A stretch of DNA of 64,000 nt. It comes from Dictyostelium discoideum (lineage: Eukaryota). Positions 18,907 through 34,469 of this stretch are shown here, piece by piece. Position numbers and translations under genes: made by a program. A model generated the notes under the pieces. It was given only the letters and a program-made list of their open reading frames with translations. It searched no databases and had not been told where the DNA came from. Each line of letters opens with the position of its first letter. Within the stretch, counting starts at the first letter, position 1. The DNA is taken from positions 3,136,001 to 3,200,000 of the forward strand of contig CM000153.2 of the NCBI GenBank assembly GCA_000004695.1, in the 5' to 3' direction.

Positions 18907-20380
18907 CCTAATATTTTATTTTTTATAATTTATTTATATAGTTAATAATAATAATAATTTAAATATAGAAATGCCAACATTATCATTAAAAATGGCAAAT
19001 GATTTATTATTAGAGATGGAAAATTTTATAAAGACAGATTTAGCAATGTTAGAGAAATTTTATACAACAGATTATAGGGATGTACCACATGAAAGGGCAA
19101 TAAATAAAGCAAAAAGAAAATTTGAAAAGAGGAGAGGACCATTATTAATTAAACCATTGAATAAAACTAAAAAGAAGATGGTAGTTGGTGAAATGGAATA
19201 TGATCCAAGATCACAAGTTTGGAAAGGTAATTATAATGATTTGAATGCATTCCCAAACCCACCAGCACTTATCACAAATATGGGTGTCAAGACTGATGAA
19301 TCGATGAAATTGGGTAACATGAAATGGGATCCAAATCAAAAGGAGTGGAAAGGTAATGAAGGTGATTTAACCAAATTTAGATTCTTAAAGCCTGCACTCA
19401 TTAGTCAGTTAACACCAAATTTGGATAGTCGTGTCGAGAATGGTATGATCTATGATCCTATCGCAATGAAATGGAAAGGTAATGAAGATGCATTGGATGT
19501 CTTTGAAACAATGGATGATCAAAACAATGATAATACCTTTACCGTTGGTAAAGAGTTTAATTTAACACCATCTTTAATCGCTTCCTTCAAGAAATCCTCA
19601 GAAGCTCACACTAAACAATTAAGTGGTTGGTTTGAAAATAGAGATCTCATTGATAGGGAATATTTGTATAGTATTAGATCAATGTCAATTATCAAATTGG
19701 TTAAATCTGCCTCTTACACAGGCCATGGTAATAATTCTGGATCTGCAAATGGTTCAGGCTCTAGTAGTGGTGGTGGTGCTTCTAATCATCAACCATCATC
19801 ACCTGGTGGTTCAGGTATTATTCCTTTAATACCATCAAAAAAGAAACCAGTTATCGATGAAACTAAAGATTGGGATGATATCGATTTTCAAGAGAAGCCT
19901 GCACTCAAATTAAATTTAAAGATTCATCACGATGCTGAAGATGAAAGAATGATGGCAATGAATGATGAACCAAATTGGGATAAAGAAATGGGTTTCACCT
20001 CTGAAGAGGAAACTTTATCATCAAATAATGAAAATGGTGGTCAATTATCTTCTTCATCACAACCTCATACCCCAAGAAAAACTGTTGAAGAATGGTCCGA
20101 TTTTGATAACACAATGAACTCTACTATCACTGGTAAAATCACACAATTAAATAAAAAAGATAGTAATCTAAATGGTACAAGTAATAGTAGTTTAGGTAAT
20201 CTAATTAATTTCAGTGGTGGTAATATTAGTAATAGTAGTGGTGGTGGTGGTGGTGGTGGTGGTGGTGGTAATAATCCAAAATCATCAGATGATGAAGATT
20301 TTGATTGGACTGGTAATAATACTTTAACAAGTGTAACACTTTCTGGTACATTATATAATAATAATAACAATAATAATAAC

Positions 20381-20465
<85 letters not shown>

Positions 20466-21637
20466 TCAACAACAATAATAATAATAGTGGTAGTATTAAA
20501 TCTAAAAAAGGTGGTAGTCTTAAAGGTGTTTTCATTGGAAATAGTGGATCAATTAGACCTAAAAAGACATCAGATAAATTAAAACGTGGTGGTACATTTG
20601 GTAATATTCAATCATTAGCCGCAGCAATGGCATCAAATACACCATTAAGCTCTAGTAGTAGTACAGTTGCAGGTGGTAATGTTAATGATCTCTATGATGA
20701 TGTTTTCCCAGTGCCAAATGGTTCAGTATTTACCCTTAGAAATAAACCACATGAAGATAACTTTGAAATGTTTTTAGAGAGTAGTAATGGTATTTCAAGT
20801 CCAAAGGATGAACCTTGTGATGAAACTATGAAATTCTTTGAGAGTGAAAAAGATGTTTTCGAAGAGGATTGGCCTGATGTGCGTGTACCAGCTGATTTAG
20901 GTCAAAAGAAATCTCACGAAAGTAGAAAATCACCACCAATCAAAAATAATCTCGTAGAGGATTACTCTGATGAATTGGATATGCCAAAGGTTAGTCAACC
21001 ACTTCAATTGAAAAAACATACTCTCATTGATAATCCATTTGGTGATGATGATGATGTTGGTTTCGAAAATGATAATGATTTTGATTGGGATGATGTATCT
21101 TTCCCTGAAAATCCTTCACAATTAATTTCCTCAACCTCAAAACTTTCAAAACCAATACCTGTTACTGCAAACTCTTCAAATACAACTTCAACCACCACAA
21201 CAACCACAACTACAACATCAAGTAATATTATAATAAATAATATAAAACAAACTAATAATAATAATATTTTTACACCATCAAAAATTAATAATATAAAACC
21301 AACGTTAACACCACAACAAAACTCAAATAATAATTTTAATTTCCAAACTCCTTCATCAACACCATTCCGACCAATTTTCACAAAAAATTTAGATGGTGAT
21401 AATAATAATAATATAAATAATATAAATAATAATAATAGCGCTAATAATACTTTACCAACACCATCAAAAATTAATAATATAAAACCAATGTCAACACCTC
21501 AAAATGTAACACATTTCACTTTCCAAACACCAAATACAACTCCATTCAAACCAACCTATAAACCTAAAAGTGTTATCGAGATTATGAACTCCGATTCTCC
21601 ACCTCCTTCTTTTGAATCTGATAAAAGAAATGTATAA
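18785..21637 (+). CDS. Protein with three tandem about 45-aa repeats (motif M-x-[YW]-DP-x4-W-K-G-N) followed by long low-complexity S/N/T-rich sequence. Candidate Byr4/Bfa1-like (GAP co-factor) repeat protein; family uncertain. Two exons: 18785..18851 and 18969..21637; intron 18852..18968 (GTATTT...TATAG).
   Basis: Exon 1 is MVSPSTKSNDGTVPSLTNNNNN, joined in frame (G+AA gives E) to MPTLSLKMANDLLLEMENFIKTDLAMLEKFY... The repeats are MEYDPRSQVWKGNYNDLNAFPNPPALITNMG, MKWDPNQKEWKGNEGDLTKFRFLKPALISQL and MIYDPIAMKWKGNEDALDVFETMDD. A 40-residue poly-N is encoded by (AAT)n at 20345..20465. The ORF itself is solid; the Byr4/Bfa1 assignment is from memory of that family's imperfect repeats and is low confidence. 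Confidence 0.7.
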
Positions 21638-21801: not shown

Positions 21802-21818
<17 letters not shown>

Positions 21819-24800
21819 AATACATCTTTGTTAAATAAGTGTACGTCATAGAATTCTGCTTTAATGCAATGATAACTAAAATATTTTCCATTTAATTTTG
21901 ACTGACAAGCCATGCCAGAATAAAGATCTTTAAATAAAATATATACTTTTACACTTTGACTATCAGATTTAATAACTAACTTTTCAATTTCACCAAATTC
22001 ATTACATCCTGATCTAATATCATCTTCAAATGATGAGTCTATATCATCTGGTGATCCTGCATTCTTTAAAACTAAACATCTCTATGATTGAAAAAAAAAA
22101 AAAAAAAAGGGATTGGTTAAATATACTTTTTTTTTAAAAAAAGAAGAATAAGTAATATTACTTACTGATGGTTGAGTTGTATCACTTCCCAAAAGTTTTT
22201 GTGTTAGTTGAATTCTTTGCTCAGAGGTTAAGGATGGCTCATTCTCTAAAAATGTTGTTTTATCAACAATATTACCATTATTGAAAATATTATTGTTGTT
22301 ATTATTATTAATATTATTATTATTAGTGTTAGTGTTATTATTATTGTTATTATTATTATTATTATTATTAATATTATTATTAATATTATTGTTATTATTA
22401 TTATTATTGGTGTTGTTGTTATTGTTAATACTATTATTATTGTTATTATTATTGTTCGAACTTTTTGTGGGTCTGCCAACCTTAATTGATCTACCTAATA
22501 ACTCAAATCCATTCATAGTAGCAATTGCATCATCGGCAGATTTCTTCAATTCAAAGTCAACGAATCCAAAACCTTTATGTTTACCTGTGTCTGCATTTTG
22601 CTAGAAAAAAAAAAAAAAAAAAAAGAAAATTAACAAATGTATAAATAATAATATAACAATGATAATATTAACATACCATTAAAAAGCAAGAAATGACTCT
22701 TCCAAATTGACTAAAAATACTTCTAACTTGATCTTCAGTAACATTCCAATTAATTGAACCGATATATATTCTGCTTGCTTCATTAATTGGAACTGGTGGA
22801 GCTGATTCATTTGGCTTTGGAACATCTGGTGTTGGATGTTGAGGTGGATGATGAGATTGTGATAAAATTGGGTGCTGTTGTTGTTGTTGCTGCTGTGGTT
22901 GTTGTGTGTGATGTGGTAAAAGTGATTGGTGATGAATTTGTAATGGTTGTTGTTGTTGTTGTTGTTGTTGTGGTTGTTGTTGCTGTACAGGGGGTTGAAT
23001 TTGTTGGTGGTTTGGTGATAATAATATTTGTTGTTGTTGCTGTTGTTGTTGTTGCTGTTGTTGTTGTTGATGGCTTCCAGTCCCAGTAAAAGGACGGGCC
23101 ACTTTTATAGCTCTTCCACACATTACATAGTTTGTCATACTTTGTAATGCTTTTGCCGCTGATTCTTGATTATCATACTCTATGAATGCATATCCTTTAG
23201 ATTTTCCACTTGCATCTTTACCTAAAGCAAGTGATTTTATATTACCAAACACAGAGAATGTTGCTCTTATAACATCTTCTGTTAAACTAAAATGTAAACT
23301 ACCAACATAAATCCTAGATTGATCTTGTGATGTTGATTGATTTAATGTTGGTGGTATTGGTGTTGTTGTTGTTGTTGGTTGAATAATTGTTGTTGATGGA
23401 GATGTCGGTATTGATGAAAAAATTTGTGTTTGGTGATGATGTAATTGATGTGGTGGTTGTTGAAGTGGTGTTGCTGTTTGTATAACTGGTGCACCAATTT
23501 GAGGTTTAAATTGAGATGATGGTGATGAAATAGGATTCTCACTTGGTTTTACTGTAAAAGTTGTTATTGTAGGAGAGGCTTGCAATGTTGTATTCTTATT
23601 TTCAGCTAAAAAAAAAAAAAAAAAAAAAAAATTAATACCCTATTATCAATTACTTTAATAAGTTGGGAAAAAAAAAAAGTGGAAAAAAAAAAAAAAAAGT
23701 GGAAAAAAAAAAAAAAAAGTGGAAAAAAAAAAAAAAAGTGGAAAAAAATAAAAAAGTGGGAAAAAAAATAAAAAAGTGGAAAAAAATAAAAAAGTGGAAA
23801 AAAAAATAATAATAAAGAAAGGAGATAAATAAAATTGTAAAAATAATAATAAAAAAAAGAAAAGAGAGAAATAAAAATTAAAAAAATAAAAAATAAAAAC
23901 ATTGATATCAAATATTAATATGAATAAAAAAAAGAAAATATAAAGCAAAAAACAAATCACTTTTAATTCTCTCTCTCTCTCCTCTTTGCCCATATCTTTG
24001 CTATTATTAATGAAAATAAAACTAATAATTAAAAGAGAGACTATGGCGAAGAACTTACAATTTGAAGATTCACTTGGGAGATTATCCCAACCAGATGATT
24101 TTCTTTTTGAAGAAAGACTTCTACTTCTATCTCTTGATCTACCTCTTTTTTTTCTTGATCTTCCATTACTATTTGATCTTGATCTTGATTTACTTCTATC
24201 AGTTGTTTTAGTACGTTTTGGTGATCTATCTCTCCTTCTTCCGCCAGCACCAGCTGATTTACTTCTTGAACGTGATCTACTAATATCCATTCTACTACTT
24301 TTAGTATCTCTATTACTTTTAGTGGTACTTCTTGAACGTGACCTGCTTGATTTATGTTTTCTACCACTGCTTCTTGAACGTGATCTACTTTTACTCTTTG
24401 ATCTACTTGATCTATTTCTAAACTTTTTTGAAGATCTTCTACTATCACTTCCAACATCTGATGAATTATAACTACTACGACGTCTATAATACCTATCACT
24501 ACGTTTTCTATCCCTTGATCTTGACCTTGATTTTGTTCTTGATCTTGACCTTGATTTTGATTTTGATTTTGATCTTGATCTACTCTTTGATCTTCGCTTA
24601 TCTTTTGATGTTAATGATTTGTTATTATTACTACTACTACTATTATTATTATTATTATTATAATGTGATTTCTTTCTATCCCTTGATTTTGATCTTGACC
24701 TTGATCTTGACCTACTATTTTTATGTGTCGTTGATGTAGTTGGAATTGCTGATGTTGTTTGATTTGTGTTGTTGTTACCATTACTACTACTCTTTTTATG

Positions 24801-25532
24801 TTTAGAATTTTTTGATCTTGATCTTGATCTTGAAGAGTCTGATGATGATGATGATGATGAGGATGATGATTCTGAGGATGATGCCGATCTTGACCTTGAT
24901 CTTGATTTTGATCTTGAATGTCTTTCAGACTTTTTATCCTTACTTGGCCTCTTTGATGACTTTTTACTATGTTTACCATCTGATGATCTTGACCTAGATC
25001 TAGAGTGTGATGAAGAAGAAGAGGATGATGATGATATTGATTTCTTTGATGATTTTGTACTTTTTGTTGTTTGTGTAAGTACTGTCGTTGTTGGAGTAGT
25101 ATTCTTATCGTCACTATTACTATTACTACTACTACCATTTGTTGTTATTGTTATTGATGTTGATATTGGTGTTGCTGGTATTGGTGTTGTTTTAGTTGGA
25201 GATGATATTGGTGTTGAATTTGATAGTTCAACAGTTGTGGTGGGTTGAGTTTGGTGGCCATTTACTAGACCATTTCCATTCGTACTTGGTGATAAATCAG
25301 TTTTTGCTGTCGTACTATTTTCTATATTTATAGGTAACAAATTTTCTTCTTCACGTGTACCATGATCATTAGTTGCTGTTATCGGTGTTGGTGTTGTTGT
25401 TGGTGTTGGTGTTGTTGTTGTTGTTGTCGGACTAGAACTTGATTTAATGCTACTAATCTTTTTACTATTACTACTTTTTGATGACCTACCACTCATTCTT
25501 TTACCATTTGGTGAACTTGTAGTGTTCTCCAT
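21802..25532 (-). CDS. PUF60/FIR-type splicing factor (two RRMs plus a C-terminal UHM) carrying an about 490-aa N-terminal arginine/serine (RS) domain. Four exons: 24059..25532 (ATG at 25532; RS domain), 22676..23605 (RRM1, poly-Q, first half of RRM2), 22166..22600 (second half of RRM2, poly-N, linker) and 21802..22081 (UHM). Introns are 23606..24058, 22601..22675 and 22082..22165.
   Basis: RRM1 RIYVGSLHFSLTEDVIRATFSVFGNIKSLALGKDASGKSKGYAFIEYDNQESAAKALQSMTNYVMCGRAIKVARP resembles PUF60 RRM1 (RIYVGSIYYEL...KGFAFVEYE...GRNIKVGRP). RRM2 RIYIGSINWNVTEDQVRSIFSQFGRVISCFLM is joined across a 75-nt GTATGT..TCTAG intron to QNADTGKHKGFGFVDFELKKSADDAIATMNGFELLGRSIKVGRP (PUF60 RRM2 ..FGKIKSC...TGKHKGYGFIEYE). 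The UHM is RCLVLKNAGSPDDIDSSFEDDIRSGCNEFGEIEKLVIK...KAEFYDVHLF (PUF60 [29 protein letters not shown]...). The RS exon (SRSRSRSKSR repeats) ends ..WDNLPSESSN-T|GTAAGT and joins in frame to the TTTAG|CT GAA AAT AAG.. exon (..SSN-S-ENKNTTLQASPTITTF). The hydrophobic tail of the listed 625-aa ORF is intron read-through. Confidence 0.8.
23672..23815. repeat. Seven tandem copies of GTGGA(A)n (unit 17-21 nt: gtggaaaaaaaaaaaaaaaa x3, gtggaaaaaaataaaaaa x3, then a degenerate copy). They lie inside the 453-nt first intron of the RS/PUF60 gene; on the transcribed strand they read (T)nCCAC.
   Basis: Seen directly in the sequence. The intron is about 3x the usual intron length seen elsewhere in this window (68-225 nt). 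Confidence 0.85.
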
Positions 25533-32394: not shown

Positions 32395-32645
32395 TTATTT
32401 TTATTATTTTTTTTTTTTTTTTTTTTTTTAATTTATTAAAAATTGAAGTAATACAGAATTTTTAAGTTCTACCATATAATTGAGTACCATTATATTTCTT
32501 TAAGGCAGCCATTTCACCGTTTTGTCTTGAATAGATGACCTAACCAGTACCATCACTTCTACCACTATTGTCATAATGAATTTTAATTTGTTTAATTTAA
32601 ATAATTGTAAACTTTTTCAATGTGGTCCATTAAATTACAATATAT

Positions 32646-32650
<5 letters not shown>
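32395..32650 (-). pseudogene. Truncated, decayed duplicate of the 3' end of the Aly/REF gene at 33327..34469. It covers the second half of the RRM plus the poly-T/aatttattaaaaatt flank, has internal deletions, and carries an in-frame stop.
   Basis: Positions 32461..32600 are about 90% identical to 33371..33510. Both copies share the flanking ttttt...aatttattaaaaatt. The copy lacks about 110 nt that the gene has (33511..33600 and 33346..33365). On the minus strand it reads ..IHYDNSGRSDGTG-stop (TAT to TAG). Confidence 0.6.
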
Positions 32651-32676
<26 letters not shown>

Positions 32677-32774
32677 TTATTTTAAAATGTGATAAAAATT
32701 TATTGATTAATTTATTGAATTATCATTATTATTATTATTATTGTTTTTTTATTATTTGTGGGTCTTTATTATTA

Positions 32775-32812
<38 letters not shown>

Positions 32813-33294
32813 AACTAATATCCAACAATACTATATGGTTTGTGAAGTGGATATTTTTTTTTTTTTTTTTGTTATTTGGATTATTATTATTATTACTATT
32901 TGGTTAATACTTGAGTTATAAGTTTGGACAAAAATAAAAATAAAAAATAAAAAAAATAAAAAAAGAAATAATAAAAAAAAAAGAAAAGAACAATTATTAT
33001 TTTAAAAAAAAAATAAGATTGATAGTATTTTGTTATAAATTTGGTAAATGTAATAATTATTATTATCATTACAATGATTATAATAAATAAATATTTTTTA
33101 TTTTTAGGGAAATTTTTTTCGAAATTTAGCTTTCTTACCCCTCTCTTTCCACACCAAAATACACTGCATATACATAGTTTTAAAATACAATAAAATTTTT
33201 TTTTTTTTTTTTTAATTATTTGGAATAAATCCAAAAAAATAAAAAAACCAATTTTAAAAAGTTATTTACTTTCAAGTTTTCTCCAAATTTTTTA

Positions 33295-33326
<32 letters not shown>

Positions 33327-34469
33327 TTAAAAATTCTTTCTTACATCCTCTTGTAAAGATGGTCCAGTTGTAATTTTTAAAGTTCTACCATCTAATTGAG
33401 CACCATTGTATTTCTTTAAGGCAGCCATTGCATCATTGTGTCTTGAATAGATGACATAACCAGTACCATCACTTCTACCACTATGATCATAATGAATTTT
33501 AATTTGTTTAATTTCACCTAAAGAATCGAATAAAACCTTGAGATCAGCTTCACTAATAGCATGATGAAGGTTTGAAATATTTAATCTTGAACCTGTAAAT
33601 AATTGTAAACTTTTTCCTGTTGGTCCATTATAGCCACCACCACCACTATTACGTCTTTCAAATAGAGTTGGACCACTACCAGTTGAGTGATCACTATCAT
33701 ATGAATTACGACGAATATTAATTCTACTACCACCACTGCCACTACTACCATTATCAACACTATATCTACTACTAATACTTCTACCACCACTACTGATACG
33801 ACTATCAAAATTATTTCTACTTGATCTAATTATTGGTCTTGATAATGATGAATTTCTATCTACAGTTTTTGTAATTCTAATTCTTGGTAAATTATTATTA
33901 TCAAATCTTGATGGAGTATCTTGTCTTTCTCTTACCTCTTTTTTAGTTGTTGTTGTATTGTTTTGAATTGTAATCTTTAATGGTGGTGGTGCTGATGATG
34001 ATGATGATGATGATGATGTGGTAGTAGTGGTTGTGGTTGTATTATGAGATCTAACTGGTATCCTTCTTAATGGTTTTGTACTACCACTGCCACCACCACC
34101 ACTACTACCACCACCACCACCATTTATTGATGTTGTATCTAATCTAGCTGTAAATTTAACTGGTGATGACTCATTCTTTTTATTATTATTTTATTATTAT
34201 TATTATTTTGGTTATTTATTTATTTTTTTAAAAAAGTGATAAATAATTTATTGATTAATTGATTGACTTTTTTTTTTTTTTTATTATTATTATTTTATTT
34301 ATTTATTTTTTTTTTTTTTTTATGATTATTTTACCTTAAAATTATTTCTAATATTTATTCTTCTTTGAAAAGTTTTTGGGGAATCTGTATTATTAAATCT
34401 ACGGGCTCTACCACCACTTTGGCTTGATTTATTATTTTTTATATATTGATCAAGTGAAATATCCTCCAT
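33327..34469 (-). CDS. thoc4: Aly/REF RNA export factor (THO complex subunit 4), about 327 aa. Two exons: 34335..34469 (ATG at 34469) and 33327..34175. Intron 34176..34334 has donor GTAAAA and acceptor AAAAAG.
   Basis: The N-terminal UAP56-binding motif MEDISLDQYIKNNKSSQSGGRARRF matches Aly MSLDDIIKLNR..GGRG. A Gly/Arg/Ser low-complexity region follows. The RRM is LQLFTGSRLNISNLHHAISEADLKVLFDSLGEIKQIKIHYDHSGRSDGTGYVIYSRHNDAMAALKKYNGAQLDGRTLKI (Aly/REF ..[71 protein letters not shown]). Exon 2 contains no start codon in frame, so it is absent from the ORF track. The protein ends ..QEDVRKNF*; a possible GTAAGA donor before the stop and a further C-terminal exon cannot be excluded. Confidence 0.8.

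Follow-up and report, generated by a model that had tools for sequence, protein, structure and literature searches.

PUF60, U2AF65 and RBM39 are three related splicing factors that read the 3' splice site and that share two RNA recognition motifs (RRMs) followed by a U2AF homology motif (UHM). Reviews set PUF60 apart from the two others partly by its missing arginine/serine-rich (RS) domain and UHM ligand motif (ULM). Whether this distinction holds outside animals is the question raised by a minus-strand gene located in a 64-kb stretch of Dictyostelium discoideum DNA (contig CM000153.2, positions 3,136,001 to 3,200,000; hereafter the window), which a preliminary description, made from the letters only, had read as a PUF60-type factor fused to a large RS domain and as a lineage-specific hybrid. 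We found that its product is very probably the D. discoideum ortholog of PUF60 (FIR / Half pint), with an RS-ULM-RRM1-RRM2-UHM layout, and that retention and expansion of an old module explain this layout better than a recent hybrid.

The gene consists of four exons (Table 1), the 3108-nt coding sequence of which runs from an ATG at 25532 to a TAA at 21814-21812 and encodes a 1035-aa product. GT..AG borders were present in 3/3 introns. The window is strongly AT-rich, and the GC content was 25-35% in exons, 12-18% in introns, and 9-12% in flanks, exon 1 having 33% GC as compared with 12% in the 5' flank and 18% in intron 1. The order of the modules is T/S/P-rich region, RS domain, ULM-like motif, RRM1, polyQ linker, RRM2, polyN linker, and UHM. 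The four-exon model, the Pfam RRMs, and the fold of the UHM agreed with the initial placement of PUF60-type parts on the minus strand. Of the span first given, 21802-25532, the 25532 end was correct, while the other end included 10 nt of a 3' A-run, the stop codon ending at 21812. A public D. discoideum assembly (GCA_054883475.1) contains a gene call with the identical ATG, stop, and 1035 residues; over this gene, a single T in the poly-T tract of intron 1 is the sole difference between the two DNAs. An exact look-up did not find the 1035-aa sequence in the protein collection, and literature searches yielded no publication that deals with the protein or with PUF60s bearing an RS domain or a ULM. 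The gene itself was previously annotated, and the new point is the presence of an RS domain and a ULM-like motif on a PUF60 core.

This point depends on the join between exons 1 and 2, and we therefore considered that the RS reading frame and the PUF60 core might be two separate genes, their fusion being an artefact of the gene model. With its 453 nt, intron 1 is unusually long for D. discoideum, and the RS region is missing from the gene model of the closest homolog in a word search, Synstelium P0001. Yet exon 2 is unable to start translation, because its first in-frame ATG occurs only in the middle of RRM1 and an in-frame TAG is found 12 codons upstream of the acceptor. Intron 1 was scanned for an alternative ATG-initiated exon with a usable donor and none was found, the sole consensus GTAAGT donor being the one at 24059|24058. 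Furthermore, the end of exon 1 carries KRKSSGWDNLP, a motif known at the N-termini of other PUF60 orthologs.

Further evidence against two separate genes was provided by other dictyostelids. The ortholog of Tieghemostelium lacteum (P0126, KYQ94260.1) has a single, likewise long intron (259 nt, phase 1), which lies just after the ULM (..GWDVNLPTSTE|N), i.e. with the same position and phase as intron 1 of the window. In Polysphondylium violaceum (P0127, KAF2073696.1), the RS domain, the ULM, RRM1, and half of RRM2 are on one genomic exon; this gene has no intron at the site of intron 1 and two introns exactly at the sites of introns 2 and 3. A metagenome contig (Ga0256787_1011416, designated L001) contains one unbroken 670-aa open reading frame (ORF) that extends from the RS domain through the UHM. 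Its DNA is 81-93% identical to the P. violaceum locus and, because the alignment blocks break exactly at the exon ends of P. violaceum, it looks like the spliced mRNA of a close relative of this species. Together with the public 1035-aa gene call, these observations make the existence of two separate genes scarcely credible. The join appears secure and is well supported by exon structure, comparative evidence, and public annotation; the junction that had been proposed (..SSN-S-ENKNTT.., with an intron from 24058 to 23606) is exactly that of the gene model, and the proposal of a frame-consistent fusion agrees with the exon structure, the introns of the orthologs, and the public gene call. Two side observations were made in the metagenome scan. 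The 5' untranslated part of L001 (1-236) is GT-repeat-rich (GTGTGTGT...), unlike typical dictyostelid flanks, and represents either an assembly artefact or a genuine 5' untranslated region. Another candidate homolog, L002, was rejected as an unrelated SR-like protein.

The RRMs and the UHM had been called 'unambiguously' PUF60/FIR-like, and a profile search with the joined protein as well as an RRM phylogeny had been proposed as checks. Raw profile scores were more ambiguous than this wording. On the NCBIfam half-pint profile (TIGR01645), the protein scored 153.5 bits, under the curated cutoff of 443.95; on the SF-CC1 (RBM39) profile (TIGR01622), it scored 202 bits, more than on half-pint and under the cutoff of 231.65; on the U2AF65 profile (TIGR01642), it scored 83.9 bits versus a cutoff of 310.3. 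In addition, each RRM gave 70-77 bits with human RBM39 RRM2 and 58-69 bits with the corresponding human PUF60 RRM, and an N-terminal RS domain is a trait of RBM39. The protein could thus be taken for the Dictyostelium ortholog of RBM39/CAPER (SF-CC1, rsd1), with its native RS+RRM+RRM+UHM layout. However, calibration on accepted members argued against this. Five accepted non-metazoan PUF60s reached only 215-328 bits on TIGR01645, all under the cutoff, and failure on this profile is uninformative because it is metazoan-trained. On SF-CC1, genuine RBM39s scored about 441 bits and accepted PUF60s 170-234 bits; in view of this calibration and of the RRMs and UHM shared by both families, 202 bits is a value in the PUF60 range rather than evidence for RBM39.

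Direct comparisons of the domains led to the same assignment. The nearest neighbor of RRM1 was PUF60 RRM1 in 145/150 bootstrap resamples and that of RRM2 was PUF60 RRM2 in 127/150, the distance of RRM1 being 0.85 to PUF60 RRM1 and 1.93 to the RBM39 RRM1 type. The tandem RRMs matched PUF60 RRM1-2 structures with 128 bits and U2AF65 RRM structures with about 47 bits. The best full-length matches in the word search were all PUF60, RBM39/rsd1 proteins having at most 120 bits and 25-27% identity. Pfam detected no RBM39 linker (PF15519) in the protein, and the 'PD..W' insertion of RBM39 UHMs was absent from its UHM in the alignment. When the UHM was compared with the Protein Data Bank (PDB) using phmmer, the scores were 38.4 bits for PUF60, 36.9 for SPF45, 24 for Tat-SF1, 22.9 for RBM39, and 14 for U2AF65. 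The UHM tree split PUF60 from RBM39 with 81.5% bootstrap. A neighbor-joining tree of the three concatenated domains (253 columns, 300 replicates; a distance method only, with fungal RBM39s only and no U2AF65 sequences) separated PUF60, including the D. discoideum protein, from RBM39 with 100% support, and grouped the protein with L001 (100%) and next with Synstelium (99%). Deep bootstraps in single-RRM trees were 5-30%, and only nearest-neighbor counts and the concatenated tree were used. RRM1 type, PF15519, the PD..W insertion, and the TIGR01622 cutoff all speak against SF-CC1 membership, and we regard an RBM39 ortholog as extremely improbable. The PUF60 identity put forward in the preliminary description is therefore upheld by the calibrated profile score, the UHM ranking, and the trees, though not the word 'unambiguously', as SF-CC1 outscored half-pint (202 vs 153) and the RRMs score as well with human RBM39 RRM2 as with the human PUF60 RRMs.

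Like human PUF60 (FIR, Ro-bp1) and Drosophila Half pint, the protein ends in a UHM preceded by two tandem RIYVG-type RRMs, the RNP1 and RNP2 of which are canonical; its pre-UHM helix (SEQRIQLTQKLL) corresponds to ARHMVMQKLL in human. The RS and ULM domains at the N-terminus of U2AF65 are missing from human PUF60 (PMC6093180), whereas the D. discoideum protein has about 300 aa of RS domain and a ULM-like tryptophan motif. It also differs from human PUF60 by a polyN linker of about 70 aa, by residues G971, E974, and K1012 (see below), and by a 103-aa inter-RRM linker, that of vertebrate PUF60 having 18 aa. In human PUF60 the tandem RRMs cooperate, and such cooperation could be looser with linkers of this length. 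With U2AF65 (U2AF2), it shares the RS domain, the ULM-type tryptophan motif, RRM1, RRM2, and the UHM in identical order, and pyrimidine/U-rich tracts of 3' splice sites are the expected target of both proteins. This likeness is one of architecture only; the protein is not an ortholog of U2AF65, to judge from TIGR01642 and from the bit scores of the UHM (14 vs 38 for PUF60) and of the RRMs (about 47 vs 128). With RBM39 (CAPER-alpha, S. pombe rsd1), the common features are an N-terminal RS domain, two RRMs, and a UHM, as well as the RRM subtype, that of RBM39 RRM2 being also that of both RRMs in the protein. RBM39 is unlike it in having an RRM1 of another subtype, the PF15519 linker, and the PD..W insertion, and in having no ULM. 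The combination RS+RRM+UHM had been described beforehand as the arrangement of RBM39 and U2AF65; the U2AF65-type order is confirmed, while the ULM-like motif at the end of exon 1 had been missed.

About 490 aa of exon 1 had been described as RS dipeptide repeats. Such repeats are present and form a genuine N-terminal RS domain according to composition, but exon 1 begins with 174 aa of low-complexity, T/S/P/N-rich sequence, and the domain proper therefore comprises only about 300 aa (aa 175-473). There are 83 RS/SR dipeptides in aa 175-491 and 84 in all upstream of RRM1, as compared with at most 3 in every PUF60-type match of the word search (120 hits). Across aa 295-473, 102 consecutive 50-aa segments contain at least 40% RS, with a peak of 54%. 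With the 40% RS/SR threshold of common practice, applied to stretches of 50 aa or more, this region qualifies as an RS domain. Canonical SR proteins have one or more N-terminal RRMs and a C-terminal RS domain (PMC3173450); the protein does not belong to them, as its RS domain is N-terminal.

At the DNA level, the RS runs consist of (TCA-AGA)n hexamer arrays (e.g. 11.3 copies at 24514-24581), which suggests that the D. discoideum RS domain expanded by slippage. This raises the possibility that the tract is not a working RS domain but simple sequence that expanded without functional effect, as is typical of the repeat-rich D. discoideum proteome. PolyQ, polyN, polyT, and polyS tracts are also found in the protein, and its RS region has no alignable sequence in common with that of L001. 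But L001 has kept the RS composition and density (52 RS/SR, peak 0.58) with a different codon mix, the PUF60 of T. lacteum is also RS-type (42 RS/SR), and RS-type PUF60s occur where the genome is neither AT-rich nor repeat-driven (Mastigamoeba, Gonapodya, and Nonionella). The RS region is, moreover, always directly upstream of a ULM-like motif, as in U2AF65, and in the window it passes 40% RS over 50 aa. We therefore consider a purely neutral tract improbable.

The hallmarks of ULMs are a tryptophan at the center, a basic tail N-terminal to it, and an acidic residue after it (PMC9364107, PMC6633205). All three are found at the end of exon 1 (K476-R-K...W482-D483). In strict ULMs, an arginine just before the tryptophan bridges to the acidic helix of the UHM; in the D. 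discoideum protein W482 is preceded by G481, while L001 and P. violaceum have R-W at this motif and the residue before W is G/A/S/T/M in the majority of the other PUF60 N-terminal motifs. A basic run followed by W and D/N was present upstream of RRM1 in 29/175 PUF60-type proteins; at the level of eukaryotic supergroups, its carriers belong to five lineages (Amoebozoa, Fungi, Archaeplastida, Metamonada, and Rhizaria). Besides other dictyostelids, it was observed in Mastigamoeba, Nonionella, and Trimastix, in the chytrids Spizellomyces, Rhizophlyctis, Fimicolochytrium, and Thoreauomyces, and in the streptophyte algae Mesostigma and Mesotaenium. In 94 PUF60-type N-termini there were 30 tryptophans in total, 12 of them in a ULM-like context. 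RS-poor orthologs such as P0002 and P0006 have short basic/S-rich remnants around the tryptophan.

The distribution of the RS domain was at first misjudged. A word-index homology search returned Synstelium as the sole dictyostelid ortholog and missed those of P. violaceum and T. lacteum as well as the publicly called 1035-residue product itself, giving the impression that the RS domain was unique to D. discoideum. An exhaustive HMMER search found the P. violaceum and T. lacteum orthologs and overturned this impression; negative results of word-index searches need caution. At least 10 RS/SR dipeptides were counted in 10/175 PUF60-type proteins, the D. discoideum RS domain being the largest. Among the others were those of T. 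lacteum (42 RS/SR; motif KKKLTGWD), P. violaceum (50; KKKSRWS), Mastigamoeba balamuthi (P0151; 14; RASGWD), the foraminiferan Nonionella stella (P0176; 13, RD/RS-rich; RKKPSAWD), and the fungus Gonapodya prolifera (P0227; 29, plus dense RD/RE; no tryptophan motif called by the pattern), as well as P0128 (37; KKRKSGWD), P0255 (26; KRTGWD), and P0228 (14; KRRTGWD). A ULM-like pattern was found in 8 of the 10 RS-bearing proteins, always in the order RS-then-ULM, and the Mastigamoeba protein is a ninth, with a weaker form outside the pattern. RS-type N-termini were absent from most sampled fungi and all sampled animals.

The description of the protein as a lineage-specific hybrid finds no support in this form, since RS-type PUF60s occur in other dictyostelids, Mastigamoeba, Gonapodya, and Nonionella, and the tryptophan motif is wider still. 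The PUF60 family probably started out with a U2AF65-like RS+ULM arrangement, which Metazoa and most Fungi would have lost. RS-type N-termini could also have been gained several times independently on PUF60 cores, by convergence. The small number of RS-bearing proteins and their absence from most fungi and all sampled animals would fit such gains, as would the fact that arginine-rich low-complexity regions arise easily and cannot be aligned between lineages. On the other hand, the RS-then-ULM order is common to the RS-bearing proteins and found in the paralog U2AF65 as well (PMC6093180), the ULM-like motif spans five lineages, and basic/S-rich remnants flank the tryptophan in RS-poor orthologs. 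As the RS regions are unalignable, the choice between ancestry and convergence is made on parsimony and on the shared order of the modules, and it leaves convergence unlikely, though by no means far-fetched. Under the ancestral reading, the D. discoideum RS+ULM module would have been enlarged through slippage of the (TCA-AGA)n hexamer repeats.

The C-terminal 89 aa, encoded by exon 4, were examined as an AlphaFold2 (AF2) model with a predicted local distance difference test score (pLDDT) of 95.5. The top 33 matches of this model in a Foldseek search of the PDB were all UHMs, the best ones being the SPF45 and PUF60 UHMs, with TM-scores of 0.85-0.88. Besides the RRM-like fold, it has the acidic helix A of UHMs, which reads SSFEDDIRSGCNE. 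In a UHM, the ULM tryptophan is clamped by a glutamate equivalent to U2AF2 E405 and by the arginine of the RXF motif (PMC9364107). Both residues were invariant in 66/66 other PUF60-type UHMs and in 9/9 RBM39 UHMs. In the D. discoideum protein, L001, and P. violaceum, the glutamate is replaced by glycine (G971) and the arginine by lysine (K1012), so that RXF reads K1012-Y-F1014, and a glutamate is gained at +3 (E974). A glutamate at +3 was observed only in these three proteins (77-protein alignment and P. violaceum residue table). T. lacteum, Synstelium, and distant RS-bearing PUF60s have kept the canonical clamp residues, and we infer that the clamp changed after the RS domain arose, within one dictyostelid subclade.

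The same combination is known from yeast Cus2, the Tat-SF1 homolog, in the UHM of which G212 is accompanied by E215 at +3; E215 has been proposed as the new partner in the salt bridge (PMC6633205). Because of this G-plus-E(+3) arrangement, the clamp of the D. discoideum protein appears to be remodeled, not dead, and a re-registered K1012-E974 bridge similar to that of Cus2 is plausible. Cus2 belongs to a different UHM family and keeps the RXF arginine, in contrast to the lysine of the D. discoideum protein, and compensation in the latter is deduced from the residues rather than from a structure.

From analogy with the known factors, the protein may work as follows. Its two canonical RRMs would recognize U-rich tracts that precede 3' splice sites (PMC6093180, PMC9364107), and its UHM would dock the tryptophan-containing ULMs of SF3B1, SF1, or U2AF65, by a clamp that may have been re-registered from the usual R-E pair to K1012-E974, as in Cus2. 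The KRKSSGWDNLP motif (W482) could itself be a ligand of another UHM, i.e. that of a U2AF35-like small subunit, of SPF45, of another PUF60 copy, or its own. The RS domain, if phosphorylated, could serve nuclear/speckle targeting and RS-RS or RNA contacts, as in U2AF65 and RBM39. Taken together, these elements suggest that the ancestral PUF60 had five modules, RS-ULM-RRM-RRM-UHM, the animal form being truncated, that dictyostelid PUF60 is both a UHM receptor and a ULM ligand, and that its clamp was re-engineered in D. discoideum and P. violaceum. As a whole, this joint reading is tentative, and we give it somewhat less than an even chance.

Several points weigh against the main interpretation, a PUF60 ortholog with the five-module layout. 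The exon 1/2 join rests on structure, comparison, and public annotation. The Synstelium model has no RS region, either through truncated prediction or through real loss, and RS regions of different lineages do not align. Part of the RS length may be neutral, because its hexamers are prone to slippage and the genome is full of simple repeats. The residue before W482 is G, not R/K, which departs from strict ULMs. Finally, the change of R to K in an otherwise invariant RXF could weaken ULM binding instead of re-registering it.

With both modules carried on a PUF60 core by a model organism and by distant eukaryotes, the RS/ULM distinction made for PUF60 is animal-specific, and PUF60, U2AF65, and RBM39 probably descend from one RS-ULM-RRM-RRM-UHM ancestor. 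If the clamp is indeed re-engineered (G971, E974, K1012), a changed partner preference is implied, possible reasons for which are the protein's own ULM or the extremely U-rich introns of these genomes. D. discoideum is a genetically tractable system in which to study what PUF60 function gains from an RS domain and a ULM, and it also suits the question of whether a UHM works with a lysine-based, register-shifted tryptophan clamp. The evolutionary interest is moderate and the practical impact modest, the gene being previously annotated and the basic picture of splicing unchanged.

Table 1. Features of the PUF60-type gene, in positions of the window.
Feature	Positions	Strand	Details
Whole gene	21812..25532	-	four-exon model; gene call with same ends in GCA_054883475.1
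Exon 1	24059..25532	-	1474 nt, ends in phase 1, aa 1-491
T/S/P/N-rich low-complexity region, aa 1-174	25011..25532	-	not RS; T 24%, S 23%, N 9%, P 9%
RS domain, aa 175-473	24114..25010	-	S 36%, R 21%, K 13%
ULM-like motif K476-R-K-S-S-G-W482-D-N-L-P486	24075..24107	-	W codon 24089-24087
Intron 1	23606..24058	-	453 nt, phase 1, GTAAGT...(T)n-AG, sense strand 62% T
20-nt T-rich tandem repeat in intron 1	23668..23809	-	7.3 copies, sense unit about TTTTTCCACTTTTTTATTTT
Exon 2	22677..23605	-	929 nt, aa 492-801
RRM1, aa 587-664	23088..23321	-	Pfam RRM_1; RNP2 IYVGSL, RNP1 KGYAFIEY
Q/H/P-rich (polyQ/H/P) inter-RRM linker, aa 665-767	22779..23087	-	103 aa
RRM2, aa 768-846	22466..22778	-	Pfam RRM_1; RNP2 IYIGSI, RNP1 KGFGFVDF; interrupted by intron 2
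Intron 2	22676-22601	-	76 nt, phase 0, splits RRM2
Exon 3	22166..22600	-	435 nt, aa 802-946: second half of RRM2, polyN linker, pre-UHM helix
PolyN linker, aa 847-915	22259-22465	-	about 70 aa, between RRM2 and UHM
Pre-UHM helix SEQRIQLTQKLL, aa 927-938	22225-22190	-	in exon 3
Intron 3	22082..22165	-	84 nt, phase 0
Exon 4 = UHM	21815..22081	-	aa 947-1035; 22081-21812 with the stop codon
Clamp residues	G971 22009-22007; E974 22000-21998; K1012 21886-21884; F1014 21880-21878	-	from residue tables

The tandem repeat of intron 1 contains the motif CCAC(T)7+, which is restricted to it within the 64-kb window. Speculatively, this U-rich array might be a site of autoregulation, lying as it does in the pre-mRNA of a splicing factor that binds poly(U). 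Inside the otherwise T-rich intron 1 there is also a purine-rich island (ATGGGCAAAGAGGAGAGAGAGAGAGAA) at about 23975-23998 on the minus strand; it begins with ATG and has no donor that is frame-compatible with exon 2.

An N-rich ORF of 888 aa with about 50 residues of polyN in one run (18971-21637, plus strand) is convergent with the PUF60 gene, only 174 nt separating their stop codons; the exact sequence of this ORF was not found in the protein collection. Two 855-aa ORFs of the window were considered as a possible duplication, which was rejected as they are unrelated to each other. About 7 kb away, a minus-strand gene at about 32450-34460 (L003 5905-7908) has an annotated 347-residue RRM_1-containing product. 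Two neighboring ORFs are exact matches to D. discoideum AX4 DDB_G0285351 and DDB_G0285397.

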